Virus record (IMG/VR): IMGVR_UViG_3300017917_002441
Location: 64,001-128,000 of that record
Direction: 5' to 3' (one strand)
Source: a virus
DNA: 64,000 nucleotides
Positions within the stretch are counted from its first letter, which is position 1, and every line of letters begins with the position of its first letter. Both the position numbers and the translations under genes were made by a program. Of the stretch, positions 11,361-27,238 are shown piece after piece. Below the pieces are notes generated by a model. That model ran no database searches. It worked only from the letters and a program-made list of their open reading frames with translations, and was not told where the DNA came from.

Positions 11361-13241
11361 ATGAGCAAAGTCATTGGTATTGACTTAGGTACCACTAATT
11401 CATGTGTAGCCGTTATTGAAAACGGAACCCCCCGAGTAATTGAAAACAGCGAAGGCGCACGTACAACGCCCAGTATCGTTGCCTATGCCGAAGACGAAAT
11501 CCTAGTGGGTGCGTCGGCCAAACGCCAAGCAGTTACCAATCCCAAAAATACAGTGTATGCGGCCAAGCGACTGATTGGTCGTAAGTTTGAAGAACAAGCT
11601 GTACAAAAAGACATTGACTTGATGCCGTATGAAATCATCCGAGCAACCAATGGCGATGCATGGGTACGTGCTCGAGACAAAGACCTAGCACCTCCGCAAA
11701 TCTCTGCAGAAGTTCTTCGCAAAATGAAGAGAACTGCCGAAGACTATCTTGGTCACGAAGTAACTCAAGCAGTTATCACAGTTCCAGCTTACTTTAACGA
11801 TAGCCAACGTCAGGCCACCAAGGACGCAGGTAAAATTGCTGGCTTGGAAGTATTACGTATCATTAACGAACCCACAGCGGCTGCTCTAGCATACGGAGTA
11901 GACAAGAACGACAAAGCCGATCGCAAAGTAGCTGTGTATGACTTGGGTGGTGGTACATTTGACGTAAGCATCATTGAAATCGCCAACGTAGACGGTGACA
12001 AACAAGTTGAGGTACTCAGCACCAACGGCGACACCTTCCTGGGCGGTGAAGACTTTGACCAGCGCATTATGGACTTCCTGTGCGACGAGTTCAAGAAAGA
12101 AAATGGTATTGATCTCAAGAAAGACATGCTGGCATTGCAACGTCTCAAAGACGCCGCAGAAAAGGCCAAGATTGAACTTTCAAACAGCGCACAAACAGAC
12201 ATCAATTTGCCGTATGTCACAGCAGATGCTACTGGTCCCAAACACTTAAACGTCAAACTCACACGTGCTAAGTTGGAAAGCCTAGTAGAAGATCTTATCA
12301 AGCGCAGTCTTGAACCATGCCGTGTTGCTATGAAGGATGCCGGGGTAAGTGCCAGCGACATTGACGAAGTTATCCTTGTTGGTGGACAAACACGTATGCC
12401 CAAGGTACAAGAAGCAGTTGAGCAACTGTTTGGCAAGGCACCGCGTCGAGACGTAAACCCTGACGAAGCTGTGGCAGTGGGTGCGGCGATTCAAGGTGCA
12501 GTGTTGTCAGGGGATCGCAAAGACGTATTGTTGTTGGACGTTACTCCACTAAGCCTTGGCATTGAAACCATGGGCGGCGTAATGGCCAAGTTGATTCAGA
12601 AGAACACAACTATTCCTACAAAGCAAAGCCAAGTATTCTCTACAGCAGAAGATAACCAGCCTGCTGTGACAATCAAAGTGTACCAAGGTGAGCGAGAATT
12701 TTGCCAACACAACAAGCTCTTGGGCGAGTTTAACTTGGAAGGTATCCCGCCAGCACGTCGTGGCACACCGCAGATTGAAGTTACATTGGATATTGACGCC
12801 AATGGTATTATGCACGTCAGCGCCAAGGACAAAGCCACTGGCAAGGAAAACAAGATCACTATCAAGGCCAACTCAGGCCTAACAGAAGCAGAAATCCAAG
12901 ACATGATCAAAGACGCAGAACTCAATGCCGAAGAAGATCGTCGTCAACGTGATCTTGTGCAAGCTCGTAACAATGCCGAAAGCACTGTACACAATATCCG
13001 CAAGGACATTGAAGAACTACGCACTGAACTCACTGCTGAACAAATTGACAAGATTGAAGCAGTGTGCAAGGAACTCGAAGAAGCTGCCAAGGGCACTGAT
13101 CGTGAAGCAATTACTAGCAAGATCAGTGAAGTCATGGTAGCTAGCGAACCCATCTTTAAGGCAAAAGCCAACAAAGACAGCAGTGAAGCCAAAACTGACG
13201 ACACTGTGGTTGATGCTGACTTTACCGAGAAGAAAGACTGA
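11361..13241 (+). CDS. dnaK: Hsp70 chaperone DnaK
   Basis: [31 protein letters not shown] linker. Confidence 0.98.
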
Positions 13242-14942: not shown

Positions 14943-15299
14943 ATGAACATAATATTTGGCGAAGACATTAAACATTTACCTGACAACTACACCATCCTAG
15001 AATTAGATAGTTTTAGATTCACTAGATCGGGAGAAATTGCCAAGGCATACTGTGTGGTTGAGAAAATACCCTTGGGTGAATTCCCCACACTAGACGAATA
15101 CAGAAATGCACACAATGAACTGTTGGTGCAGTATCGTGCTAAGAATTGGGAGTATTGCCAGGAAGCTATCAAAGCACTAACGGGCCGCTGGGGTGGAGAG
15201 CTTGACACATTTTATCAAAGCCTGCTGGAACGTGTGCAAGCTTACGAACAAACACCACCTGGTGATGACTGGGACGGTGTGATACTTAAAATAGCTTGA
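14943..15299 (+). CDS. stand-alone paralogue of the adenylate cyclase C-terminal domain
   Basis: Aligns by eye with the last ~120 aa of 20858-22909 (LELD, H..L..YR, GRxxGE.D..Y, ER, TP...WDGV). Confidence 0.75.
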   Translation: MNIIFGEDIKHLPDNYTILELDSFRFTRSGEIAKAYCVVEKIPLGEFPTLDEYRNAHNELLVQYRAKNWEYCQEAIKALTGRWGGELDTFYQSLLERVQAYEQTPPGDDWDGVILKIA

Positions 15300-16414
15300 T
15301 CAAAGTTAGTTAAGAACTCATTGATGATTTGTTGTTGAAACGCATGCGAAAAGAAGTGCTTTTGATTTCTTTTCGCAATAGCTCTTAACTGTTGCAAAGT
15401 GTGTTCATTGGCCAAGGTCAATTGATCCATGGCATACACAATGGCACGTAATCGTTGCACTGGATCTTTTATTGTGTCATATGTTTCGTCAATAAGCCCG
15501 CTGAATGTTTCAAATCCGTAACTGCGCAAATATTCAAGTGCGCCAGGGGTAGATGCAAGAATAAACGGCTGTGCGCATGCGATTGGTCGTAAAGCTTTTT
15601 CTGTTAAGTGTAGACGTTCATCGTCAAACAATGTTTCTAACACAACTTCAACATGAGTTTCTTGATAGTCTGTTGAACAATAATCTGCACTGGCTGACGC
15701 TGGGGTTTGATTCAAAGTAAAATGTTGTTCAAGATCAGTGGCAACAATTTTAAATGCAGGATTGGCGAACTCATGAGCTCTATAGTGCTGTTCGTTATCA
15801 ATGGGGTTGAATCCCATTTTACACAGTGTAGCAACACTGCTCTTTGATACTAATTCGGCAAATTTTAGTCGATATTCTCTAGACCCGCCCCAGGCTCGAT
15901 TGTAAATTAAAAATAGCTTTTGAATATTTTTCTTGTGTAGCAATGGATCATGCTCGGCATATCTGTACCAGTCACGTGCAATTAGTCCATGGCTCCAAAA
16001 GTACACTGGCCAGTGATTTTTACTTGCAAGGTTGCTAACTTGTTTACTGTTGAGTTCGCTGTGCGTAAACAACACTGGTTTATCTGAGTCCCCGGTTGCT
16101 AGTATTTTTAATTCAAATTTTCTAAACAATTCAACCGCTTGTTCGTCAGAGATGTGCCGTGATGTTGGATCAATCTGAACCATGTAATTCTTCCATTGAA
16201 TAATGTCTTGATTAGAATATTGGGAGAAGTTAATTGGCTCTTGGTCATGAGACAACATAACTAGCGATGTTTCTAATTGTTGATTGGTATAGTTTTTCAA
16301 CGGAACCATGTGTTCAAGTTTTTTTGAGCCATGCGGGAACCAGCGATAAATTATGATATCGGTCTTGACAACGTCTTCTAAAAAATTGTATAATCTATCT
16401 AAAGGAACACTCAT
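15242..16414 (-). CDS. putative glycosyltransferase-like protein (GT10-like C-terminus)
   Basis: VVLET...LTEK..RPI...PFIL...G..YLR.YGF.TF...DETYD; start MSVPLDRLY. Confidence 0.55.
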   Translation of the reverse strand: MSVPLDRLYNFLEDVVKTDIIIYRWFPHGSKKLEHMVPLKNYTNQQLETSLVMLSHDQEPINFSQYSNQDIIQWKNYMVQIDPTSRHISDEQAVELFRKFELKILATGDSDKPVLFTHSELNSKQVSNLASKNHWPVYFWSHGLIARDWYRYAEHDPLLHKKNIQKLFLIYNRAWGGSREYRLKFAELVSKSSVATLCKMGFNPIDNEQHYRAHEFANPAFKIVATDLEQHFTLNQTPASASADYCSTDYQETHVEVVLETLFDDERLHLTEKALRPIACAQPFILASTPGALEYLRSYGFETFSGLIDETYDTIKDPVQRLRAIVYAMDQLTLANEHTLQQLRAIAKRNQKHFFSHAFQQQIINEFLTNFDQAILSITPSQSSPGGVCS

Positions 16415-20818: not shown

Positions 20819-20840
20819 GGCCCCGTAAGGGGCTTTTTAT
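20819..20840 (+). terminator. intrinsic terminator
   Basis: GGCCCC-GTAA-GGGGCT followed by T tract. Confidence 0.8.
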
Positions 20841-20857: not shown

Positions 20858-22909
20858 ATGCTAAAAAAATTACTGCTTTCACCATGGACAGCAACGGTAA
20901 CTCTTGTATTAATCTTGGCAGTTAGAACCGCAGATCCTGTTTTTGTTGAAAGTATTAGATTACGTTATTTTGACACACTGATCACTGCCAAAGAATCTAC
21001 AGTCAACAACATTGTTACTGTAAATATTGACGAAGCCAGTTTGGATCGTTATGGTCAATGGCCGTTGCCGAGAGCTGAATATGCCAAAATTGTTCGAGAT
21101 CTATACCAGAAGGGAGCAGGCCTTGTGGTACTTAATGTACTCATGCCAGAGCCAGACCGCACAGGTGGCGACAGTGCGTTGGGTCAAACTCTAAAGGAAT
21201 TCCCAGTAGTGCTGGGCAGTGCGCCTGCAAACAACACCAAAAACACTCCACGAGTACCTGGCTCAGCAGTGCTGAATCCCGAGTACCTAGATCAAATCAT
21301 ACAATATCCGGGGTTAATAGCCAACGTTCCGCAATTGGAACGCAATGCCGCTGGTGTTGGCGTCACAGGCACACTGCCCGAAGTCGACGGTGTTAATCGT
21401 CGCATGCCTTTGATTGTTGCAGTAGATGGCAAACTATATCCAGCTCTAAGCTTAGAAACTTTGCGTGTGGCAGCCAACGATTCAACCTTTCAAGTCAAGC
21501 TGTTTGAAGGCGGTGTTGAAAAAATGCGCATTCCACAGTTTGGTGTCATTGCAACGGATAGCCTAGGGCGTGTGTGGATTGACTGGAGTCAACAAAGTCA
21601 AAGCTACAGTCTAACCAATATACCAAACAATTTAAACGGAGCTATTGTAATAGTAGGCCCTACGGCCGCTGGAATAGGTAACCCGTTGCCAACTGCTCGT
21701 GGTGCTGTGTGGCCGCACGAAGTGCAAGCCGCAGTGATAGGCACCATGGTCAACGGCGTTGTTATACAACGTCCTGACTACGCAGACGGTGTAGAAATCA
21801 TAGCCCTGGCAGTGGCTAGTATATTACTGCTGTTTTTAACAAGGTGGACTTATGCGGGATTGGCTAGTGTTATTGTGTTGGTTTGTGGCTCCGTGGCTGG
21901 TAGTTGGTGGGCTTTTACTAATCATTTATGGTTATATGACGCTACTGCCTTTGCAGTTGGCACAGTCCTGGTCGCTTTGCATGCCTACGGAGTCAAATTT
22001 GTTTCAGAGTTCTTACAGAAACAACAAATAAAGAAACAGTTTGGCACATATCTCTCGCCCGCCATGGTTGAGAAGTTGCAGAAGAATCCTGAGCTATTAA
22101 CTTTGGGTGGCGAGTCAAGAGAGTTAAGTATCATGTTCACTGATGTGCGCGGGTTTACTTCGATATCTGAACACTATGGTCGAGACGTACAAGGTCTTAC
22201 TAAAATTATGAACCGGTACATGACTGCAATGACTGCCAAGATCATAGAAAACAACGGAACGTTAGACAAATACATTGGCGATGCACAAATGGCATTTTGG
22301 AACGCACCGCTAGACGATGCAGATCACGCAAAAAACGCAGTTCGAACAGCATTAGAAATGATGAGGAGCCTTGATGACTTTAATGCAGAAATTACTCAAG
22401 AAGGTGTGCCAGCCTTTGGTATGGGTCTTGGAATCAACACCGACACTGTTGTGGTGGGTAATATGGGATCTAGTCAGCGTTTTGACTATACTTGCCTTGG
22501 TGATGGCGTCAATTTGGCTAGCCGATTGGAGGGCCAGAGTAAGCCGTACGGTGTCCGAATTGTACTTGGTCCAAGGACTGCAGAATTGGTGCAGGAAGAA
22601 TACTACGTACTAGAACTAGACTGTATTGCTGTTAAAGGCAAAACACAAGGTGTACACATCTATACAGTGCTAGGGCACAACAATGATGTTGTTGCCGAAT
22701 CCAATGATAGACAGATGCACGAAGCAATGTTGGCATTGTATCGTCAGAAAAAGTTTGATACAGCTATAAAATTCTGTCAGGACTTGCGCGGAAGATTCAA
22801 CGGTGAAATGGATTACTACTACACTGCTTGGATTGAACGTTGTGAAGAAATGAAAAACACCCCTTTGCCCACAGACTGGGACGGGGTGTATCGTGCTACC
22901 AGCAAATAA
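20858..22909 (+). CDS. CHASE2-domain membrane class III adenylate cyclase
   Basis: N-terminal TM, CHASE2 (IDE.SL..YGQWP.PR, DGV.RR.PL), 3 TMs, FTDVRGFT, DKYIGDA, DYT..GD.VNLASRLEG with ATP-specifying K/D. Confidence 0.93.
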   Translation: MLKKLLLSPWTATVTLVLILAVRTADPVFVESIRLRYFDTLITAKESTVNNIVTVNIDEASLDRYGQWPLPRAEYAKIVRDLYQKGAGLVVLNVLMPEPDRTGGDSALGQTLKEFPVVLGSAPANNTKNTPRVPGSAVLNPEYLDQIIQYPGLIANVPQLERNAAGVGVTGTLPEVDGVNRRMPLIVAVDGKLYPALSLETLRVAANDSTFQVKLFEGGVEKMRIPQFGVIATDSLGRVWIDWSQQSQSYSLTNIPNNLNGAIVIVGPTAAGIGNPLPTARGAVWPHEVQAAVIGTMVNGVVIQRPDYADGVEIIALAVASILLLFLTRWTYAGLASVIVLVCGSVAGSWWAFTNHLWLYDATAFAVGTVLVALHAYGVKFVSEFLQKQQIKKQFGTYLSPAMVEKLQKNPELLTLGGESRELSIMFTDVRGFTSISEHYGRDVQGLTKIMNRYMTAMTAKIIENNGTLDKYIGDAQMAFWNAPLDDADHAKNAVRTALEMMRSLDDFNAEITQEGVPAFGMGLGINTDTVVVGNMGSSQRFDYTCLGDGVNLASRLEGQSKPYGVRIVLGPRTAELVQEEYYVLELDCIAVKGKTQGVHIYTVLGHNNDVVAESNDRQMHEAMLALYRQKKFDTAIKFCQDLRGRFNGEMDYYYTAWIERCEEMKNTPLPTDWDGVYRATSK

Positions 22910-22911
22910 AT

Positions 22912-23205
22912 TTACTGAGCCTTGTCAACAGATTTGTTGATTTTCTTGTCAGCTTCCATGCGTTCGCGTTCAATTTTATCGCCACGCAAATGCAAAGTCA
23001 CAGTGACCTTTTGATTGAGTCTGATCAAATCGTTATCCAACATACGAATACGATCGATCAAGGCAATTAATGTGGTGTTGGCTTCGCTCAACACTGGCTT
23101 GATTTCTGTTGTTGCCCACTTCCATACATAAAATATCAAGTAGCCCATGCCCCCGGCAGCTACTATAGGAAATCCATATTTGTTAACTAATTCTACAATG
23201 TCCAT
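22912..23205 (-). CDS. small membrane + coiled-coil protein, paralogue of 23694-23972
   Basis: LV..GFPI.AA...GY TM followed by heptads. Confidence 0.75.
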   Translation of the reverse strand: MDIVELVNKYGFPIVAAGGMGYLIFYVWKWATTEIKPVLSEANTTLIALIDRIRMLDNDLIRLNQKVTVTLHLRGDKIERERMEADKKINKSVDKAQ

Positions 23206-23208
23206 ACT

Positions 23209-23358
23209 TTACCCCAATAAAATTCCAACAACAACACCGATTGCAAACGCAACACTGGCAACATAAAACAAATCTCGGTCATGCCATAGAGGTTGATTTT
23301 TTAAATATATTTTGGTATGTTCAGGTAGACTGTTGTACCATTGGCTCCATTTGTCCAT
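23209..23358 (-). CDS. small C-terminally anchored membrane protein (not in ORF track)
   Basis: 49 aa MDKWSQWYNSLPEHTK...VAFAIGVVVGILLG. Confidence 0.6.
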   Translation of the reverse strand: MDKWSQWYNSLPEHTKIYLKNQPLWHDRDLFYVASVAFAIGVVVGILLG

Positions 23359-23503
23359 GTTGTAATCCTTGTTGTACTAATGCATTTAATTGGTCGGCGC
23401 ATCGTCTAATATCTTGCGACAGTTCTCCGTTACCAATGTCCTTTTCAACATCTCTTGCTACGTCATGCAGTTTAATTACGTCATCTACTAGTCTAAGAAT
23501 CAT
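23321..23503 (-). CDS. small helical hypothetical protein
   Basis: MILRLVDDVIKLHDVAR..., GAGG RBS. Confidence 0.55.
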   Translation of the reverse strand: MILRLVDDVIKLHDVARDVEKDIGNGELSQDIRRCADQLNALVQQGLQHGQMEPMVQQST

Positions 23504-23513
23504 GTGATGCCTC

Positions 23514-23693
23514 TCAATCAATTTTGTTAACAAACTTTTCAAACGCATCTAGCCGACGCAGCCAACGCTGGCCGTCAATCTCAACCAGCTGAAAAACGTC
23601 ACCGGGATTCCAAGTTAGTTTTGCAACATTGATCTCTTCGTCAAGTTTGATACCGTTGGGATACAAGTCCCAGTCATAATCAACGTACTTCAT
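23514..23693 (-). CDS. small hypothetical protein, AbrB-like (not in ORF track)
   Basis: 59 aa MKYVDYDWDL...W.PGDVF. Confidence 0.6.
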   Translation of the reverse strand: MKYVDYDWDLYPNGIKLDEEINVAKLTWNPGDVFQLVEIDGQRWLRRLDAFEKFVNKID

Positions 23694-23972
23694 TTAGTCC
23701 CTTCTAGCATCACTTTGTTCTGCTCGAGCAATACGATCTAAGTCAGGTTCTAGCCCTAGAGCATGCGATACTTTGGTGTCAATACGTACAACGTCGTGAT
23801 TCATGGCAGCCACACGTTTGTCTAATGCGCCAATAATACCGGCCATGCCTTTAACGCTGGAGGTAACTCCAGCAAGAATAAATTTCAGTGTTAGAAATAC
23901 AAAATAGCCGGCTGCAATAGCGGCTGCGATTGGAAAACCTAGTTCTGCAACTAGCTTGAAAAACTCACCCAT
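23694..23972 (-). CDS. small membrane + coiled-coil protein, paralogue of 22912-23205
   Basis: LVAELGFPIAAAIAAGYF TM; AGGAG RBS. Confidence 0.75.
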   Translation of the reverse strand: MGEFFKLVAELGFPIAAAIAAGYFVFLTLKFILAGVTSSVKGMAGIIGALDKRVAAMNHDVVRIDTKVSHALGLEPDLDRIARAEQSDARRD

Positions 23973-24017
23973 GTTGGCTCCTTGAAGGATATAATTTTAT
24001 TATGCAATTATTTATTA

Positions 24018-25109
24018 TTACCGCTGTATAATAGTGATCACTGTGGTTCCGCCGCGATTAATCTGCTGTGTTAATGGTGTACCGTCTTGCACAATGTTTA
24101 GCATAACATCAGCTTCAAGATCCACAGTTACTTGTGCAGTGTGTGTGGTTTGTTTGCGTAGCACTAGTTTGGTGTCGTCTTCGTTTTTTCCGTAAGTTAG
24201 CCCACTGGCAGCTGAGTACCCTGGCAACATTGTTTGTTCAGCTAATATAGCTTCTTGACTAGCAGACAACGTTTGGTTGGCCACGTCCAGCATGTTTGTT
24301 AAAAAATTAACGTCCAAGTAGTTGATATCTAGTTCAACAAATTTTCGAAGTTGGTCTTGGTCCAGTTCGTCATATTTTAAAAAATCTTGATTTAAAAAAT
24401 TTACATCTAATACAGTGCGTTGATCTGTGTTGTTGTCTTTTTCCGTGCTTTGCTTAATCTCAGGTGGCGGGCTAACAATCAATAAGTTGTTGATGTTAGC
24501 AGGGTCTACAGTTACTACCACAGGAGCGGTTGGCGGAGTTGACAAGCTGGCAACCAAAGTAGCTTGAAAAGGTTGGTCTAGTAATACAACCCCGGCATCA
24601 TTGCTGACCATAATAGCCCCAGTGACACAGGCTCGTGAATCACAGCTGGGCAATAGCATAACCAGGCTACGGCCCAGTTCGTCTACAGTCATTGAAAAAT
24701 CTGTACCACGCACTGCCACTGTAGCAGTGGGGGTCTGTACGTTGACATTTTGCGGTGAGTTTTTTGCTATCTGCCCTGATGCGTATCTAGCAGTGCCTTG
24801 TACCATTTTCATGGCCAATTTGCCAGATCCTTTTTTTGGATCATACACAAAGTCGTCTATCACCAACTTTGATTGTTCGGTAATTTTAACAGTGGTATTG
24901 TCGTCAAATGTGAGTTGAGCTTTTGCTCGAGCAGTTACCACAGTGTCGTTCATCTCCACGGCGGAATTTACATTACTCGATACAGACTTTTTGTTGCGTA
25001 TGATTTCAGTAGGGCCAGTTTGTTCTGTTACCCGGCCCACTGCCGCCCAATTAGTCTGACTGAATAATGCTAATATTATTGAGATTGCCAGTGCTGTTGA
25101 CCGTGACAC
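24018..25109 (-). CDS. secreted FecR-domain protein
   Basis: Signal peptide, F.D.T...ITE.S.L.ID.FVYDP, TPTAT..VRGT.F. Confidence 0.88.
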   Translation of the reverse strand: MSRSTALAISIILALFSQTNWAAVGRVTEQTGPTEIIRNKKSVSSNVNSAVEMNDTVVTARAKAQLTFDDNTTVKITEQSKLVIDDFVYDPKKGSGKLAMKMVQGTARYASGQIAKNSPQNVNVQTPTATVAVRGTDFSMTVDELGRSLVMLLPSCDSRACVTGAIMVSNDAGVVLLDQPFQATLVASLSTPPTAPVVVTVDPANINNLLIVSPPPEIKQSTEKDNNTDQRTVLDVNFLNQDFLKYDELDQDQLRKFVELDINYLDVNFLTNMLDVANQTLSASQEAILAEQTMLPGYSAASGLTYGKNEDDTKLVLRKQTTHTAQVTVDLEADVMLNIVQDGTPLTQQINRGGTTVITIIQR

Positions 25110-25674
25110 TCTTGTTTAACATTCCACTTTGTGTTACTGCTACAGTGTTGGTATTGCCAGTCACTGTGATATCTGCTGAAGTTGTGCCAGTAGCAGTGCT
25201 GGTATGAGTCACAGTGTTAGTGTCCCCCGCAACAGTGATGTTACTGGTGTGATTTGCGCCAGCACCTAGAGTCTGTGTTATGGTGTTGTTGTCACCGTTC
25301 ACAGTTTGTGTGATAGTACTACCGCCGCAGGTTGATGACACTGTGCTACCACATGTGATTTCCTGAGTGTTGGTACTGCCAATGGTTGCAACAGCCACAG
25401 TTGTAGCCGCACCGTTTACCACCATGTTCAACACATTGTTGCTACCAATTTGATCTATAGTAACAGTGTTTGCACCTGACCCAATGTATGCTGGATTCAA
25501 ACTTGATCCAACTCGATTATCACTACCGTCTTGGGTAATGGTAATAGTACTGCCGCTGCCAATTTGTTCAACATAAACTTCGTTGGCATGCCCCGGCATT
25601 ATCATCGCAGACAATGCTAGAATTGCAAGTATTTTTTTCGACAACTTGCCAGCGCCTGTTCTTCCTTTTTTCAT
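25051..25674 (-). CDS. curlin-like (CsgA/B-type) repeat protein
   Basis: Signal peptide; repeats of N-x-I/V-x-I/V-x-Q-x-G-x-x-N; G/T/N/S-rich. Confidence 0.7.
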   Translation of the reverse strand: MKKGRTGAGKLSKKILAILALSAMIMPGHANEVYVEQIGSGSTITITQDGSDNRVGSSLNPAYIGSGANTVTIDQIGSNNVLNMVVNGAATTVAVATIGSTNTQEITCGSTVSSTCGGSTITQTVNGDNNTITQTLGAGANHTSNITVAGDTNTVTHTSTATGTTSADITVTGNTNTVAVTQSGMLNKSVTVNSTGNLNNISIIQSD

Positions 25675-25676
25675 TT

Positions 25677-26456
25677 TTATTGTTTTCCTCGGAATCTCCA
25701 GAGCCCTCTTTTCTCACCCTCAACAATCATTTCGTAAACACCTTGTTCAATGGCTACACGAACTGCATAGTTTGTGGGTTCATTCAATGCGGCACCGCTT
25801 TCTAACTCAACACTGTTGGTGCTTTGATCAACAAAGCGCAACACGCCGACATTGTGTGCAGTGCTATAGATAGTCTTGGAAACAGCGTTGGTCAGTAAAA
25901 CTTCGCCCGAGTTAACGCTGATTAATCTTAAACTGATTACAACTTCATCAACTCGATACTGTTGGCTCCCACCGATTCCCAAAAATCTAGCACCATTACC
26001 ACCGGATCGTATATTGCTATCGTATCCAATAATGCCTCCTTCTATCATGATACCAGCCACTGTGAGTGGCTTCAAGGGCTTGGCATCTTTGCCCTCGTAA
26101 ACTTCACGCTGGTTGCGTATAAGTTGACGTTCTTTGACCAAGTTGTCTAATCCCACACGTTCAACAACTCGAAACCAATTTTTACTATCTTGTAAACTCT
26201 TTATTAGATACACTTCGGCGCCCTGAGTAACTGCTTTACTAAACAGTGCCAGTTTATCATTGGGTTTCATTTGTCCGGTTTTGTCTGCAAACCCATACAC
26301 AGCTATGGTCATGGGAGGACCGTCTAGTGCAGGCAAATTGTTCAGCAAGTTCTCACGTGGTTGCAAGGCCACCGGTTCTTCTCGAGCCAATTCCATGTGT
26401 ATATTGGCACAGCCACTCAGCGTTAACAAAACAATAATAGCGATTAGGTACTTCAT
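25677..26456 (-). CDS. csgG: curli secretion channel CsgG lipoprotein
   Basis: Lipobox LSGC, AVY.F.D.TGQ, S.AVTQG, WF.VVER.GL.NL..ERQ.IR, EGGIIGYD. Confidence 0.93.
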   Translation of the reverse strand: MKYLIAIIVLLTLSGCANIHMELAREEPVALQPRENLLNNLPALDGPPMTIAVYGFADKTGQMKPNDKLALFSKAVTQGAEVYLIKSLQDSKNWFRVVERVGLDNLVKERQLIRNQREVYEGKDAKPLKPLTVAGIMIEGGIIGYDSNIRSGGNGARFLGIGGSQQYRVDEVVISLRLISVNSGEVLLTNAVSKTIYSTAHNVGVLRFVDQSTNSVELESGAALNEPTNYAVRVAIEQGVYEMIVEGEKRGLWRFRGKQ

Positions 26457-26902
26457 TAGAATGCAAAGCTCGCTATTGGAACAGTAATGTCAGTTCTATT
26501 ACCGTTGGACTCTATTATGGTTAGAGTAACATCTGCGCCAGTCTTGACCCAACTTATATTTGTTCCTTGAAAGTCTAAGTTGCCAGATGTGGCACCGCCA
26601 TCGGCAAACATTGCGTCTGCCAGTTGTTTGGATAATTGTGCGTAGATACGTGATTCAACGTTGACTAAGAACTTGGCCAAGTTAGTATTCTTGGCATCAC
26701 GTTCGGCCTTGTCGGCCAAGGCCTTGGCTTCGTCTCGGAGTTTTTGTTTGCGTTGGTTTTCCAACTGCTCGATTGTCAGGACGTGGCTACTATACCCTTG
26801 TCCTGAGAAGGCTGGCGAGTTGAACTGATGCACCAGTTCGGTGGCGTGGCTCCGGCCGATAATTACTACTGCCAGGGCGCCTGCGATTATAATTTTATTC
26901 AT
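26456..26902 (-). CDS. csgF: curli assembly factor CsgF
   Basis: Signal peptide, mature N-terminus TELVHQFNSPAFSG, LESRI-like VESRIYAQLS. Confidence 0.8.
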   Translation of the reverse strand: MNKIIIAGALAVVIIGRSHATELVHQFNSPAFSGQGYSSHVLTIEQLENQRKQKLRDEAKALADKAERDAKNTNLAKFLVNVESRIYAQLSKQLADAMFADGGATSGNLDFQGTNISWVKTGADVTLTIIESNGNRTDITVPIASFAF

Positions 26903-26983
26903 GACAATCCCCGTGCTTAGTATTTACACGGGGATGGTCAATTTAAATGTAGCTAGATTTTCTTGTTCTAGAACAAAAAGTTT

Positions 26984-27238
26984 TTACTTTTTTGGTTTTG
27001 TGGTCTTGTTAGCTCCAGAGCTAACAGTCTTTTTTGGTTGTGGCTTTCGTGTTGGCTTGTTGCCTGTGGCCACAGGATCAACTGGCTTCTTGGCTGGTTG
27101 CTTGCGACTGTTCACAACAGGCTTTACAGGATTGACCACTGGCGTTTCTGCCACCGGCGGCACTGGTGCTTCGATCTTGTAAGGCGCCGCTGGTTCGGCC
27201 TGTTTGATACCAAAAAGGTTTGTGATGAATTTTAACAT
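26984..27238 (-). CDS. Pro/Lys-rich small protein
   Basis: 84 aa, AGGAG RBS. Confidence 0.65.
   Translation of the reverse strand: MLKFITNLFGIKQAEPAAPYKIEAPVPPVAETPVVNPVKPVVNSRKQPAKKPVDPVATGNKPTRKPQPKKTVSSGANKTTKPKK

Follow-up and report, generated by a model that had tools for sequence, protein, structure and literature searches.

A candidate curli-type (type VIII) secretion module with a possible built-in envelope sensor in an uncultured large phage

Why would a phage encode curli-type (type VIII) secretion genes side by side with a FecR-domain protein and a membrane-bound adenylate cyclase? This question is raised by a 64,000-nucleotide stretch of the IMG/VR virus record IMGVR_UViG_3300017917_002441 (positions 64,001 to 128,000 of that record, hereafter the window). 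Indeed, its positions 20,858 to 26,902 encode, on the minus strand and in this order, csgF, csgG, a curlin-repeat gene and a FecR gene, then five small genes, which converge on a plus-strand CHASE2 adenylate cyclase, the stop codons of the cyclase and of the 97-aa gene s97 being separated by 2 bases (Table 1). A preliminary description of this locus, made from the letters and open reading frames (ORFs) of the window, had listed all these genes and their 2-bp convergence; ORFs and Pfam matches place each of them where it had put them, and the convergence is indeed stop-to-stop. It had also proposed that the locus acts as a trans-envelope relay. The interpretation that we favour, tentatively, is that of a phage-borne curli-type secretion module with a built-in envelope sensor.

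According to this interpretation, CsgG and CsgF would form an outer-membrane channel exporting the curlin subunit and, in many relatives, lectin-headed curlin fusions as well. The soluble FecR-like protein would act at the periplasmic face of this channel, where it may replace the missing CsgE, and would relay the state of the channel or of the fibre to the periplasmic CHASE2 domain, setting the synthesis of cyclic AMP (cAMP) in the cytoplasm. Information would thus flow from the envelope to the cytoplasm.

Linkage, composition and precedents of the module

The genes of this locus are consistently linked. In total, 158 viral loci were fetched with CsgG or the cyclase as seed, and all the proteins of the window were mapped onto them. 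Among cyclase-seeded IMG/VR loci with at least 8 kb of flank on both sides of the seed, csgG and FecR are present within 10 kb in every case (41/41) and all six partners in 40 of the 41; reciprocally, the cyclase and FecR are found in all csgG-seeded loci (33/33). The neighbourhood that the preliminary description had assumed is therefore conserved, and the cyclase was unlinked in none of these loci. The association of the cyclase with csg and FecR genes is far beyond chance, the cyclase is no accidental neighbour, and in phages the genes of the module are inherited as one unit. Furthermore, pairwise comparison of the 56 loci in which all genes are complete revealed that FecR diverges in step with CsgG and CsgF (r 0.87-0.92); for the two small membrane proteins s92 and s97, the correlation of divergence is r 0.71.

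The core of a curli-type secretion system is encoded in the window. CsgG aligns with Escherichia coli CsgG (3x2r, 2e-50) over residues 3-258, and two of the three residues of its constriction loop differ from those of E. coli (Y51 is replaced by N and N55 by L, F56 being kept). The N-terminal F-x-N-P-x-F-x-G peptide of CsgF, which plugs into the CsgG barrel, is represented by HQFNSPAFSG after the signal peptide, and 98 of 144 relatives have the motif; a PDB sequence search returned no match for CsgF. The curlin-repeat protein matches a curlin-repeat protein of the PDB (8c50, 1.4e-4) and, weakly, the CsgA and CsgB models of NCBIfam, and its gene overlaps the start of the FecR gene by 59 nt. Its sequence is that expected of a secreted curlin-repeat subunit of a type VIII system. 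As in the CsgBAC-CsgDEFG system of E. coli, the window thus has a CsgG lipoprotein channel, the N-terminal peptide of CsgF and a curlin-repeat subunit bearing a signal peptide; it differs from that system by the changed constriction residues and by the addition of FecR, a CHASE2 cyclase and two small membrane proteins. No match to the CsgE hidden Markov model (HMM, PF10627) was obtained in the 149-kb record or in three complete relatives (337-344 kb), CsgC and CsgD not having been searched for, in agreement with the absence of a visible CsgE in the preliminary description.

Table 1. Predicted features of the module in the window (coordinates are window positions; TM, transmembrane segment)
Feature	Position	Strand	Support
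CHASE2 receptor adenylate cyclase, 683 aa	20858..22909	+	Pfam CHASE2 7e-40; Guanylate_cyc 5e-19
s97, 97-aa membrane protein, N-terminal YGFPI hydrophobic helix, coiled-coil tail	22912..23205	-	phrog_18771 2.7e-33
s49, 49 aa, C-terminal TM 28-49, variable filler between s92 and s97	23209..23358	-	ORF; homologues in 24 loci
s75, small soluble helical protein, variable filler	23321..23548	-	ORF; homologues in 6 loci only
s59, small soluble protein, variable filler	23514..23693	-	ORF; homologues in 41 loci, between s92 and s97
s92, 92-aa membrane protein, TM ~12-36, coiled coil, near-invariant C-terminal DAR[RK]D	23694..23972	-	phrog_18771 7.5e-35
Secreted FecR-domain protein, 363 aa	24018..25109	-	Pfam FecR PF04773 9e-13; phrog_37870 1.8e-99
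Curlin-repeat fibre subunit, 207 aa, signal peptide (by inspection)	25051..25674	-	Pfam Curlin_rpt PF07012 5.9e-7
CsgG outer-membrane lipoprotein channel, lipobox LSGC	25677..26456	-	Pfam CsgG 4.5e-52
CsgF, 148 aa, signal peptide	26456..26902	-	Pfam CsgF 1.4e-15; phrog_35372 5e-52
Leader hairpin just upstream of csgF	26909..26933	-	-22.5 kcal/mol, z -7.0

In 53 of 135 loci, a second curlin-repeat gene is found between FecR and the cyclase. Many of its products measure 430-810 aa, the repeats following a non-curlin head of 200-600 residues, and these head-curlin fusions look like lectin-tipped fibre subunits. The record of the window contains a single curlin gene, without the lectin-curlin gene between FecR and the cyclase. 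Individual genes seen at this position in relatives include gp018 of Pelagibacter phage HTVC008M (locus L002, 6639-7964), which combines a PA14 head with curlin repeats; another gene with a large head domain before the curlin repeats (L087, 8693-10000); and a gene encoding a discoidin (F5/8 type C) domain, in which no curlin repeat was detected (L004, 13038-16334).

Phage "curli operons" were reported in 2020 and 2022 with no mention of the cyclase and of FecR (PMC7029224, PMC9004378). A further study from 2022 described a viral type VIII cluster, present in both podo- and myo-pelagiphages and composed of one or two "histidine kinases", CsgF, CsgG, CsgA/B, FecR, a second CsgA/B and an adenylate cyclase; it stated that FecR, cyclase and kinase are foreign to bacterial curli operons, did not mention CHASE2, and estimated viral curli proteins at about 0.1% of assembled viral proteins in ocean viromes (PMC9599517). 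The module of the window is of this published kind, FecR and cyclase included. By protein search, the same cassette was found in HTVC008M and in the Methylophilales phage Melnitz, whose CsgG is 49% and whose cyclase is 37-41% identical to those of the window. The pelagiphage clusters (HTVC008M, pelagimyophage metagenome-assembled genomes (MAGs), HTVC023P-type podophages and Melnitz) share the genes and the core order of the window, namely two small proteins, CsgF, CsgG, curlin, FecR and adenylate cyclase. The window departs from them in its inverted cyclase, in lacking the lectin-curlin gene, in having three further small genes between the two paralogues, and in its carrier, an uncultured phage of about 340 kb without a close isolate. 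Indeed, all module genes point in one direction in HTVC008M and Melnitz, and the convergent layout is the rarer one (9 of 135 loci, versus 126 co-directional).

The cassette is widespread in aquatic phages, and their known hosts are without curli genes. In the literature collection searched, no paper combined phage, CHASE2, adenylate cyclase and curli, and none of the jumbo-phage papers listed mentioned CsgG. The new elements are the carrier of about 340 kb, the identity of the cyclase as a CHASE2 receptor, the closer tie of FecR to CsgG and CsgF than to the cyclase, a C-terminal beta domain of FecR that is limited to secretion-linked copies, and a repeated grouping of barrel, FecR and CHASE2 in bacteria. 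The CHASE2 identity, the tie of FecR to the channel and the repeated bacterial design turn the cassette into a concrete question, namely whether the state of an outer-membrane translocon controls a second-messenger enzyme by way of a soluble FecR protein.

The FecR-domain protein, the CHASE2 cyclase and their bacterial parallels

The FecR-domain protein starts with a cleavable signal peptide (…TNWA/AVG), from which it is predicted to be soluble, and has neither an N-terminal cytoplasmic anti-sigma domain nor a membrane anchor. In its AlphaFold2 (AF2) model (predicted local distance difference test, pLDDT, 82), two parts are confident, the FecR fold (residues 22-200) and a C-terminal domain (300-363) of six beta strands that ends in ITIIQR; the acidic Leu-rich stretch linking them (200-295) is of low confidence. 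Residues invariant in FecR include R134, G135, T136 and Q362. A PDB sequence search gave no match for this protein; at the level of the model, the FecR fold matches the periplasmic domain of PupR (6ovk, Z 15.3; 4m0n, Z 14.3). Residues 21-115 also match the N-terminal anchoring domain of a Marinomonas ice-binding adhesin (5ix9, Z 10.8). This "cell surface anchoring domain" match was considered for the C-terminal tail and rejected, VIA-align placing it on the N-terminal portion of the FecR fold. The likeness to the FecA-FecR-FecI and PupB-PupR systems lies in this fold, the PupR domain being the one that binds the signalling domain of the outer-membrane transducer. The differences are that the FecR protein of the window carries a cleavable signal peptide only, in place of the anti-sigma domain and anchor, that the output of the phage system is a cyclase and not a sigma factor, and that no TonB-dependent transducer was found, as judged from the absence of a Plug domain (PF07715) in the record and in three complete relatives (extracytoplasmic function sigma factors were not searched for).

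The C-terminal tail is confined to secretion-linked copies of FecR; in the FecR partners of bacterial CHASE2 cyclases, the C-terminus is unrelated to it. The preliminary description had seen a curlin-like repeat in this tail. The resemblance stands at the motif level, the tail ending in ITIxQ much as curlins themselves do. A repeat is not demonstrated: hhalign pairs the tail weakly (P 0.0012, probability 20%) with the last repeat of the curlin profile, and the tail folded alone as an AF2 monomer is a compact domain whose best matches are Ig-like (Z at most 4.1), with no match to a solenoid.

The cyclase has the architecture of a CHASE2 receptor, that is an N-terminal TM (residues 4-30), a periplasmic CHASE2 domain (the Pfam match spans residues 14-323), a TM cluster (~307-382) and a cytoplasmic output domain, here a class III catalytic domain (421-602), followed by a C-terminal extension of about 80 aa. 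Its best PDB matches are 6fht, 2w01 and CyaB (3r5g). The preliminary description considered the catalytic and ATP-specificity residues intact, and alignment to 3r5g and 6fht bears this out: the metal-binding D429 and D475, the ATP-specificity residues K471 and T545 and the transition-state residues N552 and R556 are all present, in the pattern of the adenylate cyclase CyaB. The sequence therefore fits a class III adenylate cyclase of the K/T subtype, as in CyaB. Across 130 cyclase sequences (129 from IMG/VR and that of the window), no variation is seen at either Asp, at the Lys or at the Arg. Relatives of this cyclase are encoded in more than 580 IMG/VR stretches, and the secretion-linked cyclases form a single clade (Shimodaira-Hasegawa approximate likelihood ratio test, SH-aLRT, 100%). 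Two active-site subtypes were observed, T545 with N552 in 77 sequences, window included, and D545 with S552 in 53; the replacement of the transition-state Asn by Ser is uncommon and could alter cyclase activity.

Cyclases of this type also accompany FecR proteins in bacteria. In a FecR-profile scan limited to one genome per species, 71 other bacterial FecR loci were recovered, 13 of them with a CHASE2 protein within 8 kb, 17 with a Slam-like barrel and seven with all three. The FecR-CHASE2 pairing that the preliminary description called frequent is thus recurrent in bacteria (13/71). The CHASE2 neighbours are mostly full-length CHASE2 cyclases, 30-37% identical to that of the window, and the Slam-like outer-membrane protein, composed of TPR and a beta-barrel, is encoded directly upstream of FecR. 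Examples of this triad are loci L179 (6542-11500), L190 (8402-13401), L214 (8174-13648) and L209 (5945-10753). The sensor of the listed loci is an adenylate cyclase, except in a SAR11 single-cell genome, one of the seven with all three genes, in which CHASE2 ends in a PP2C phosphatase; another SAR11 genome encodes the barrel and FecR without CHASE2. We know of no description of this bacterial triad of Slam-like barrel, FecR and CHASE2. What recurs is an outer-membrane barrel paired with a soluble FecR protein and, optionally, with a CHASE2 sensor as the reader, and the phage CsgG and CsgF take the position of the barrel. The triad and the Burkholderia BiofilmReg operon (PMC5192318) resemble the module of the window by a soluble FecR beside a CHASE2 sensor, often with a barrel, and their outputs vary between adenylate cyclase, PP2C phosphatase and histidine kinase. 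The triad differs from the module by its TPR-plus-Slam barrel, by a FecR without the C-terminal ITIxQ domain and by the absence of curlin genes.

The complete module was also found on bacterial contigs. Seven MAG contigs of scattered taxonomy, assigned to seven phyla or classes (L162, L164, L166-L170), carry it; five of them (L162, L164, L166, L167 and L170) have s92/s97 homologues, and L168 and L169 are too short to show them. In view of the taxonomy and of these homologues, the seven contigs were set aside as probably mis-binned phage DNA. Two related Caulobacteraceae MAGs (L165, 7065-13085; L163) encode csgF, csgG, two curlin genes, a tailed FecR and a CHASE2 cyclase on the chromosome, flanked by methylmalonyl-CoA mutase, acyl-CoA dehydrogenase and TetR genes and without s92 and s97. 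This copy is a bacterial occurrence, contrary to the statement of PMC9599517. It is present in only two of 201 genomes of the family, and its cyclase nests inside the viral clade, beside a phage-like contig; capture from a phage is therefore more likely than ancestral donation, which is disfavoured, and the copy was probably acquired in this way.

A characterized parallel exists in Sinorhizobium meliloti, in which a plant signal is perceived by CHASE2 cyclases by way of the outer-membrane barrel NsrA (PMC13001267, PMC7529298) and deletion of CHASE2 makes CyaD1 constitutive (PMC5498481). This NsrA-CyaD1/CyaD2/CyaK-Clr cascade resembles the module of the window in that CHASE2 cyclases are fed through an outer-membrane beta-barrel and that a FecR-domain gene lies beside cyaD1. 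It differs in that its barrel is not CsgG, that its FecR protein acts downstream, and that the Crp-type receptor Clr is encoded next door, none having been found in the phage genomes searched.

The relay and the other explanations

Does the locus then encode a trans-envelope relay, as first proposed? The single module, the FecR-CHASE2 pairing and the barrel neighbours in bacteria speak for it; the neighbourhood evidence supports the relay as a design, and we regard it as a reasonable reading, which is unproven. Several observations weigh against it. The correlation of FecR divergence with that of the cyclase is r 0.39 when all loci are pooled and, for the two seed sets taken separately, 0.79 and 0.44; the pooled mirror-tree analysis, built from two seed genes, overstated the uncoupling of the cyclase, and recomputation per seed gave the same ordering in weaker form. 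The cyclase is exchanged by recombination more freely than FecR, and the co-variation indicates three recombining blocks (csgF-csgG-curlin-FecR; s92-s97; cyclase). Moreover, the cyclase is optional in podophage versions of the cluster (PMC9599517), so that FecR may serve secretion alone; taken with the co-variation, this assigns FecR first to the channel. FecR could even be secreted cargo, since its head-plus-tail layout is the same as that of the lectin-curlin fusions. In S. meliloti, SMc02177, the FecR neighbour of cyaD1, is dispensable for signal perception (PMC5498481); it is the sole genetically tested FecR neighbour of a CHASE2 cyclase, and a simple transducer role of FecR is weakened by this result. 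No domain or protein binding cyclic nucleotide monophosphates (cNMPs) was detected in the record of the window, in five complete relatives or in five SAR11 genomes, and the failure to find a cAMP receptor poses a genuine difficulty for all members of the family. Finally, the late-promoter reading of the TAAATA motif, described below, is suggested by the motif only.

A more specific version of the relay, which we consider unlikely, is that FecR is a periplasmic CsgE substitute whose unique C-terminal domain docks on CsgG and CsgF, and that it informs the CHASE2 cyclase of pore occupancy or fibre load, the infected cell turning surface events into a cAMP signal. If so, such events could be a second phage attacking, or the fibre touching nearby cells or particles; the cAMP signal would change the course of infection, and the phage would encode an outside-in sensory organ built on a secretion system, as one case of a wider undescribed class in which an outer-membrane translocon, FecR and CHASE2 serve as a bacterial trans-envelope relay. 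That the output would be lysis timing or exclusion is purely speculative, and there is no support yet for a curlin plug, for strand docking or for the control of lysis or exclusion, all of which had been suggested at first.

The module could alternatively be about the fibre in the first place, as an adhesive amyloid coat on the infected cell, for sibling capture or as a superinfection shield, with FecR as a CsgE-replacing adaptor or fibre-attached cargo and the cyclase as an independent envelope sensor that only tunes the host. This explanation is possible, if on the doubtful side. It accounts for a core secretion set of CsgG, CsgF and curlin without CsgE, for the second curlin-repeat gene in 53 of 135 loci, with PA14 or discoidin heads in some of those examined, for the co-variation of FecR with CsgG and CsgF and not with the cyclase, and for the optional cyclase of podophages; ideas of aggregation have already been put forward (PMC7029224, PMC9599517). 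However, no clumping was seen in Melnitz infections (PMC9004378), and both the FecR-CHASE2 neighbours of curli-free bacteria and the presence of the cyclase in 33/33 and 41/41 loci are left unexplained. That CsgG, open without CsgE, serves instead for the uptake or sensing of solutes, FecR binding an incoming ligand (iron chelate or cofactor) and reporting to the cyclase, is distinctly improbable. The lack of CsgE in the record and in three complete relatives and the altered constriction of CsgG are consistent with it. FecR proteins sense ferric citrate signalling in E. coli. The idea of an open pore was raised in PMC9599517, but it leaves the curlin subunits, CsgF and the tail of FecR without a function; in addition, no TonB-dependent transducer was found in the record or in three complete relatives, and no ligand site was identified.

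We give still less weight to a lysis-timing device, proposed for Melnitz (PMC9004378), in which a gated pore of CsgG and CsgF would trigger or time lysis and the small membrane proteins would be holin-like. Late-type promoter motifs and a weak match of the s97 N-terminus to a holin PHROG (E 0.0018) agree with it, but that match covers only 20 residues, CsgG belongs to the outer and not the inner membrane, real secretion substrates are encoded, and the chromosomal copy of Caulobacteraceae lies among housekeeping genes without the small proteins. Lastly, the PADLOC models of PycC match the catalytic domain (4e-24), as would be expected if the cyclase were a Pycsar-like pyrimidine cyclase or another enzyme of defence or counter-defence unrelated to the secretion genes. 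This is very improbable: the match reflects the shared class III fold, K471 and T545 agree with CyaB, a bona fide adenylate cyclase, the adjacent genes include no cNMP-binding effector, and the linkage to csgG and FecR is universal. The secretion module with an envelope sensor stays our tentative preference.

Expression signals, small genes and genomic setting

The TAAATA motif, together with a hairpin burying the ribosome-binding site of csgF, suggests that the secretion module would be expressed late in infection. The hairpin upstream of csgF (Table 1) encloses TAAATA in its loop, its 3' arm containing the csgF ribosome-binding site, and similar hairpins with differing stem sequences and the same TAAATA loop precede csgF in loci L004, L019, L025, L031, L045, L100 and L130. 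Among distinct regions, TAAATA is found within 60 nt upstream of csgF in 75/107, of s92 in 69/94 and of the cyclase in 40/107, and it almost never precedes csgG, s97 or fecR; three transcription units are predicted on this basis, the motif preceding csgF, s92 and the cyclase but hardly the internal genes. In the window, s92 is preceded by TAAATA and an AAGGAG ribosome-binding site. The late promoters of phage T4 read TATAAATA, and the T4 lysozyme gene e has a hairpin by which early transcripts are untranslatable, late transcripts starting inside it. By analogy, and as read from these motifs, early read-through RNA of csgF may be silent and late RNA translatable. A GC-rich hairpin (GGCCCCGTAAGGGGC, window positions 20819-20834) lies between a gene for a 104-aa membrane protein and the cyclase and is a putative terminator on both strands; it is followed by TAAATA, 5 nt before the ATG of the cyclase.

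The two small membrane proteins with a GFPI motif, s92 and s97, had been taken for paralogues, and they are (29% identity, E 5e-12; same PHROG). s97 occurs in 132 of 161 loci, always adjoining the module, and in the phage collection s92 was found in the six records that bear the module and in no other; the pair immediately precedes csgF or immediately follows the cyclase. By profile search, the phrog_18771-type family comprises 837 clusters, all of small stand-alone proteins. Neither protein has a family in Atlas or Pfam (a YvrJ lead reached 0.89 only), neither matches HisKA or HATPase even at E 10, and no His is conserved between the two subfamilies in their alignment. The "histidine kinases" of PMC9599517 are probably s92 and s97, an identification made from their position only. 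As for the fillers between them, s49 has no family match and the true start of s75 is likely an ATG near 23503.

The window belongs to a 149-kb record with a CheckV completeness of 44%. Its relatives reach 328-344 kb, with terminal repeats, and the phage itself is of an uncultured lineage, about 340 kb in size with 45% GC. No close cultured phage was found by nucleotide search of the phage collection or by comparison of the ligase; the sole nucleotide match was a 108-bp segment of HTVC008M, and protein searches were needed for this reason. The surroundings are phage-like, with a ligase, tail fibres, structural proteins and a DnaK homologue, and no tRNA gene was found in the window. Just upstream of csgF, an 84-aa low-complexity protein rich in Pro, Lys and Val (26984-27238, minus strand) is encoded, which has no family match and is shared with the closest relatives only (e.g. 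L019 and L159). In one 344-kb relative (L021), a gene for a TerC-family membrane protein (15105-15776, minus strand) is inserted between FecR and the cyclase. The DnaK (Hsp70) homologue of the window (11361-13241, plus strand) is full length and shares 66-69% identity with bacterial-type DnaK in phage records; DnaK is also known in other huge phages, e.g. Lak phages.

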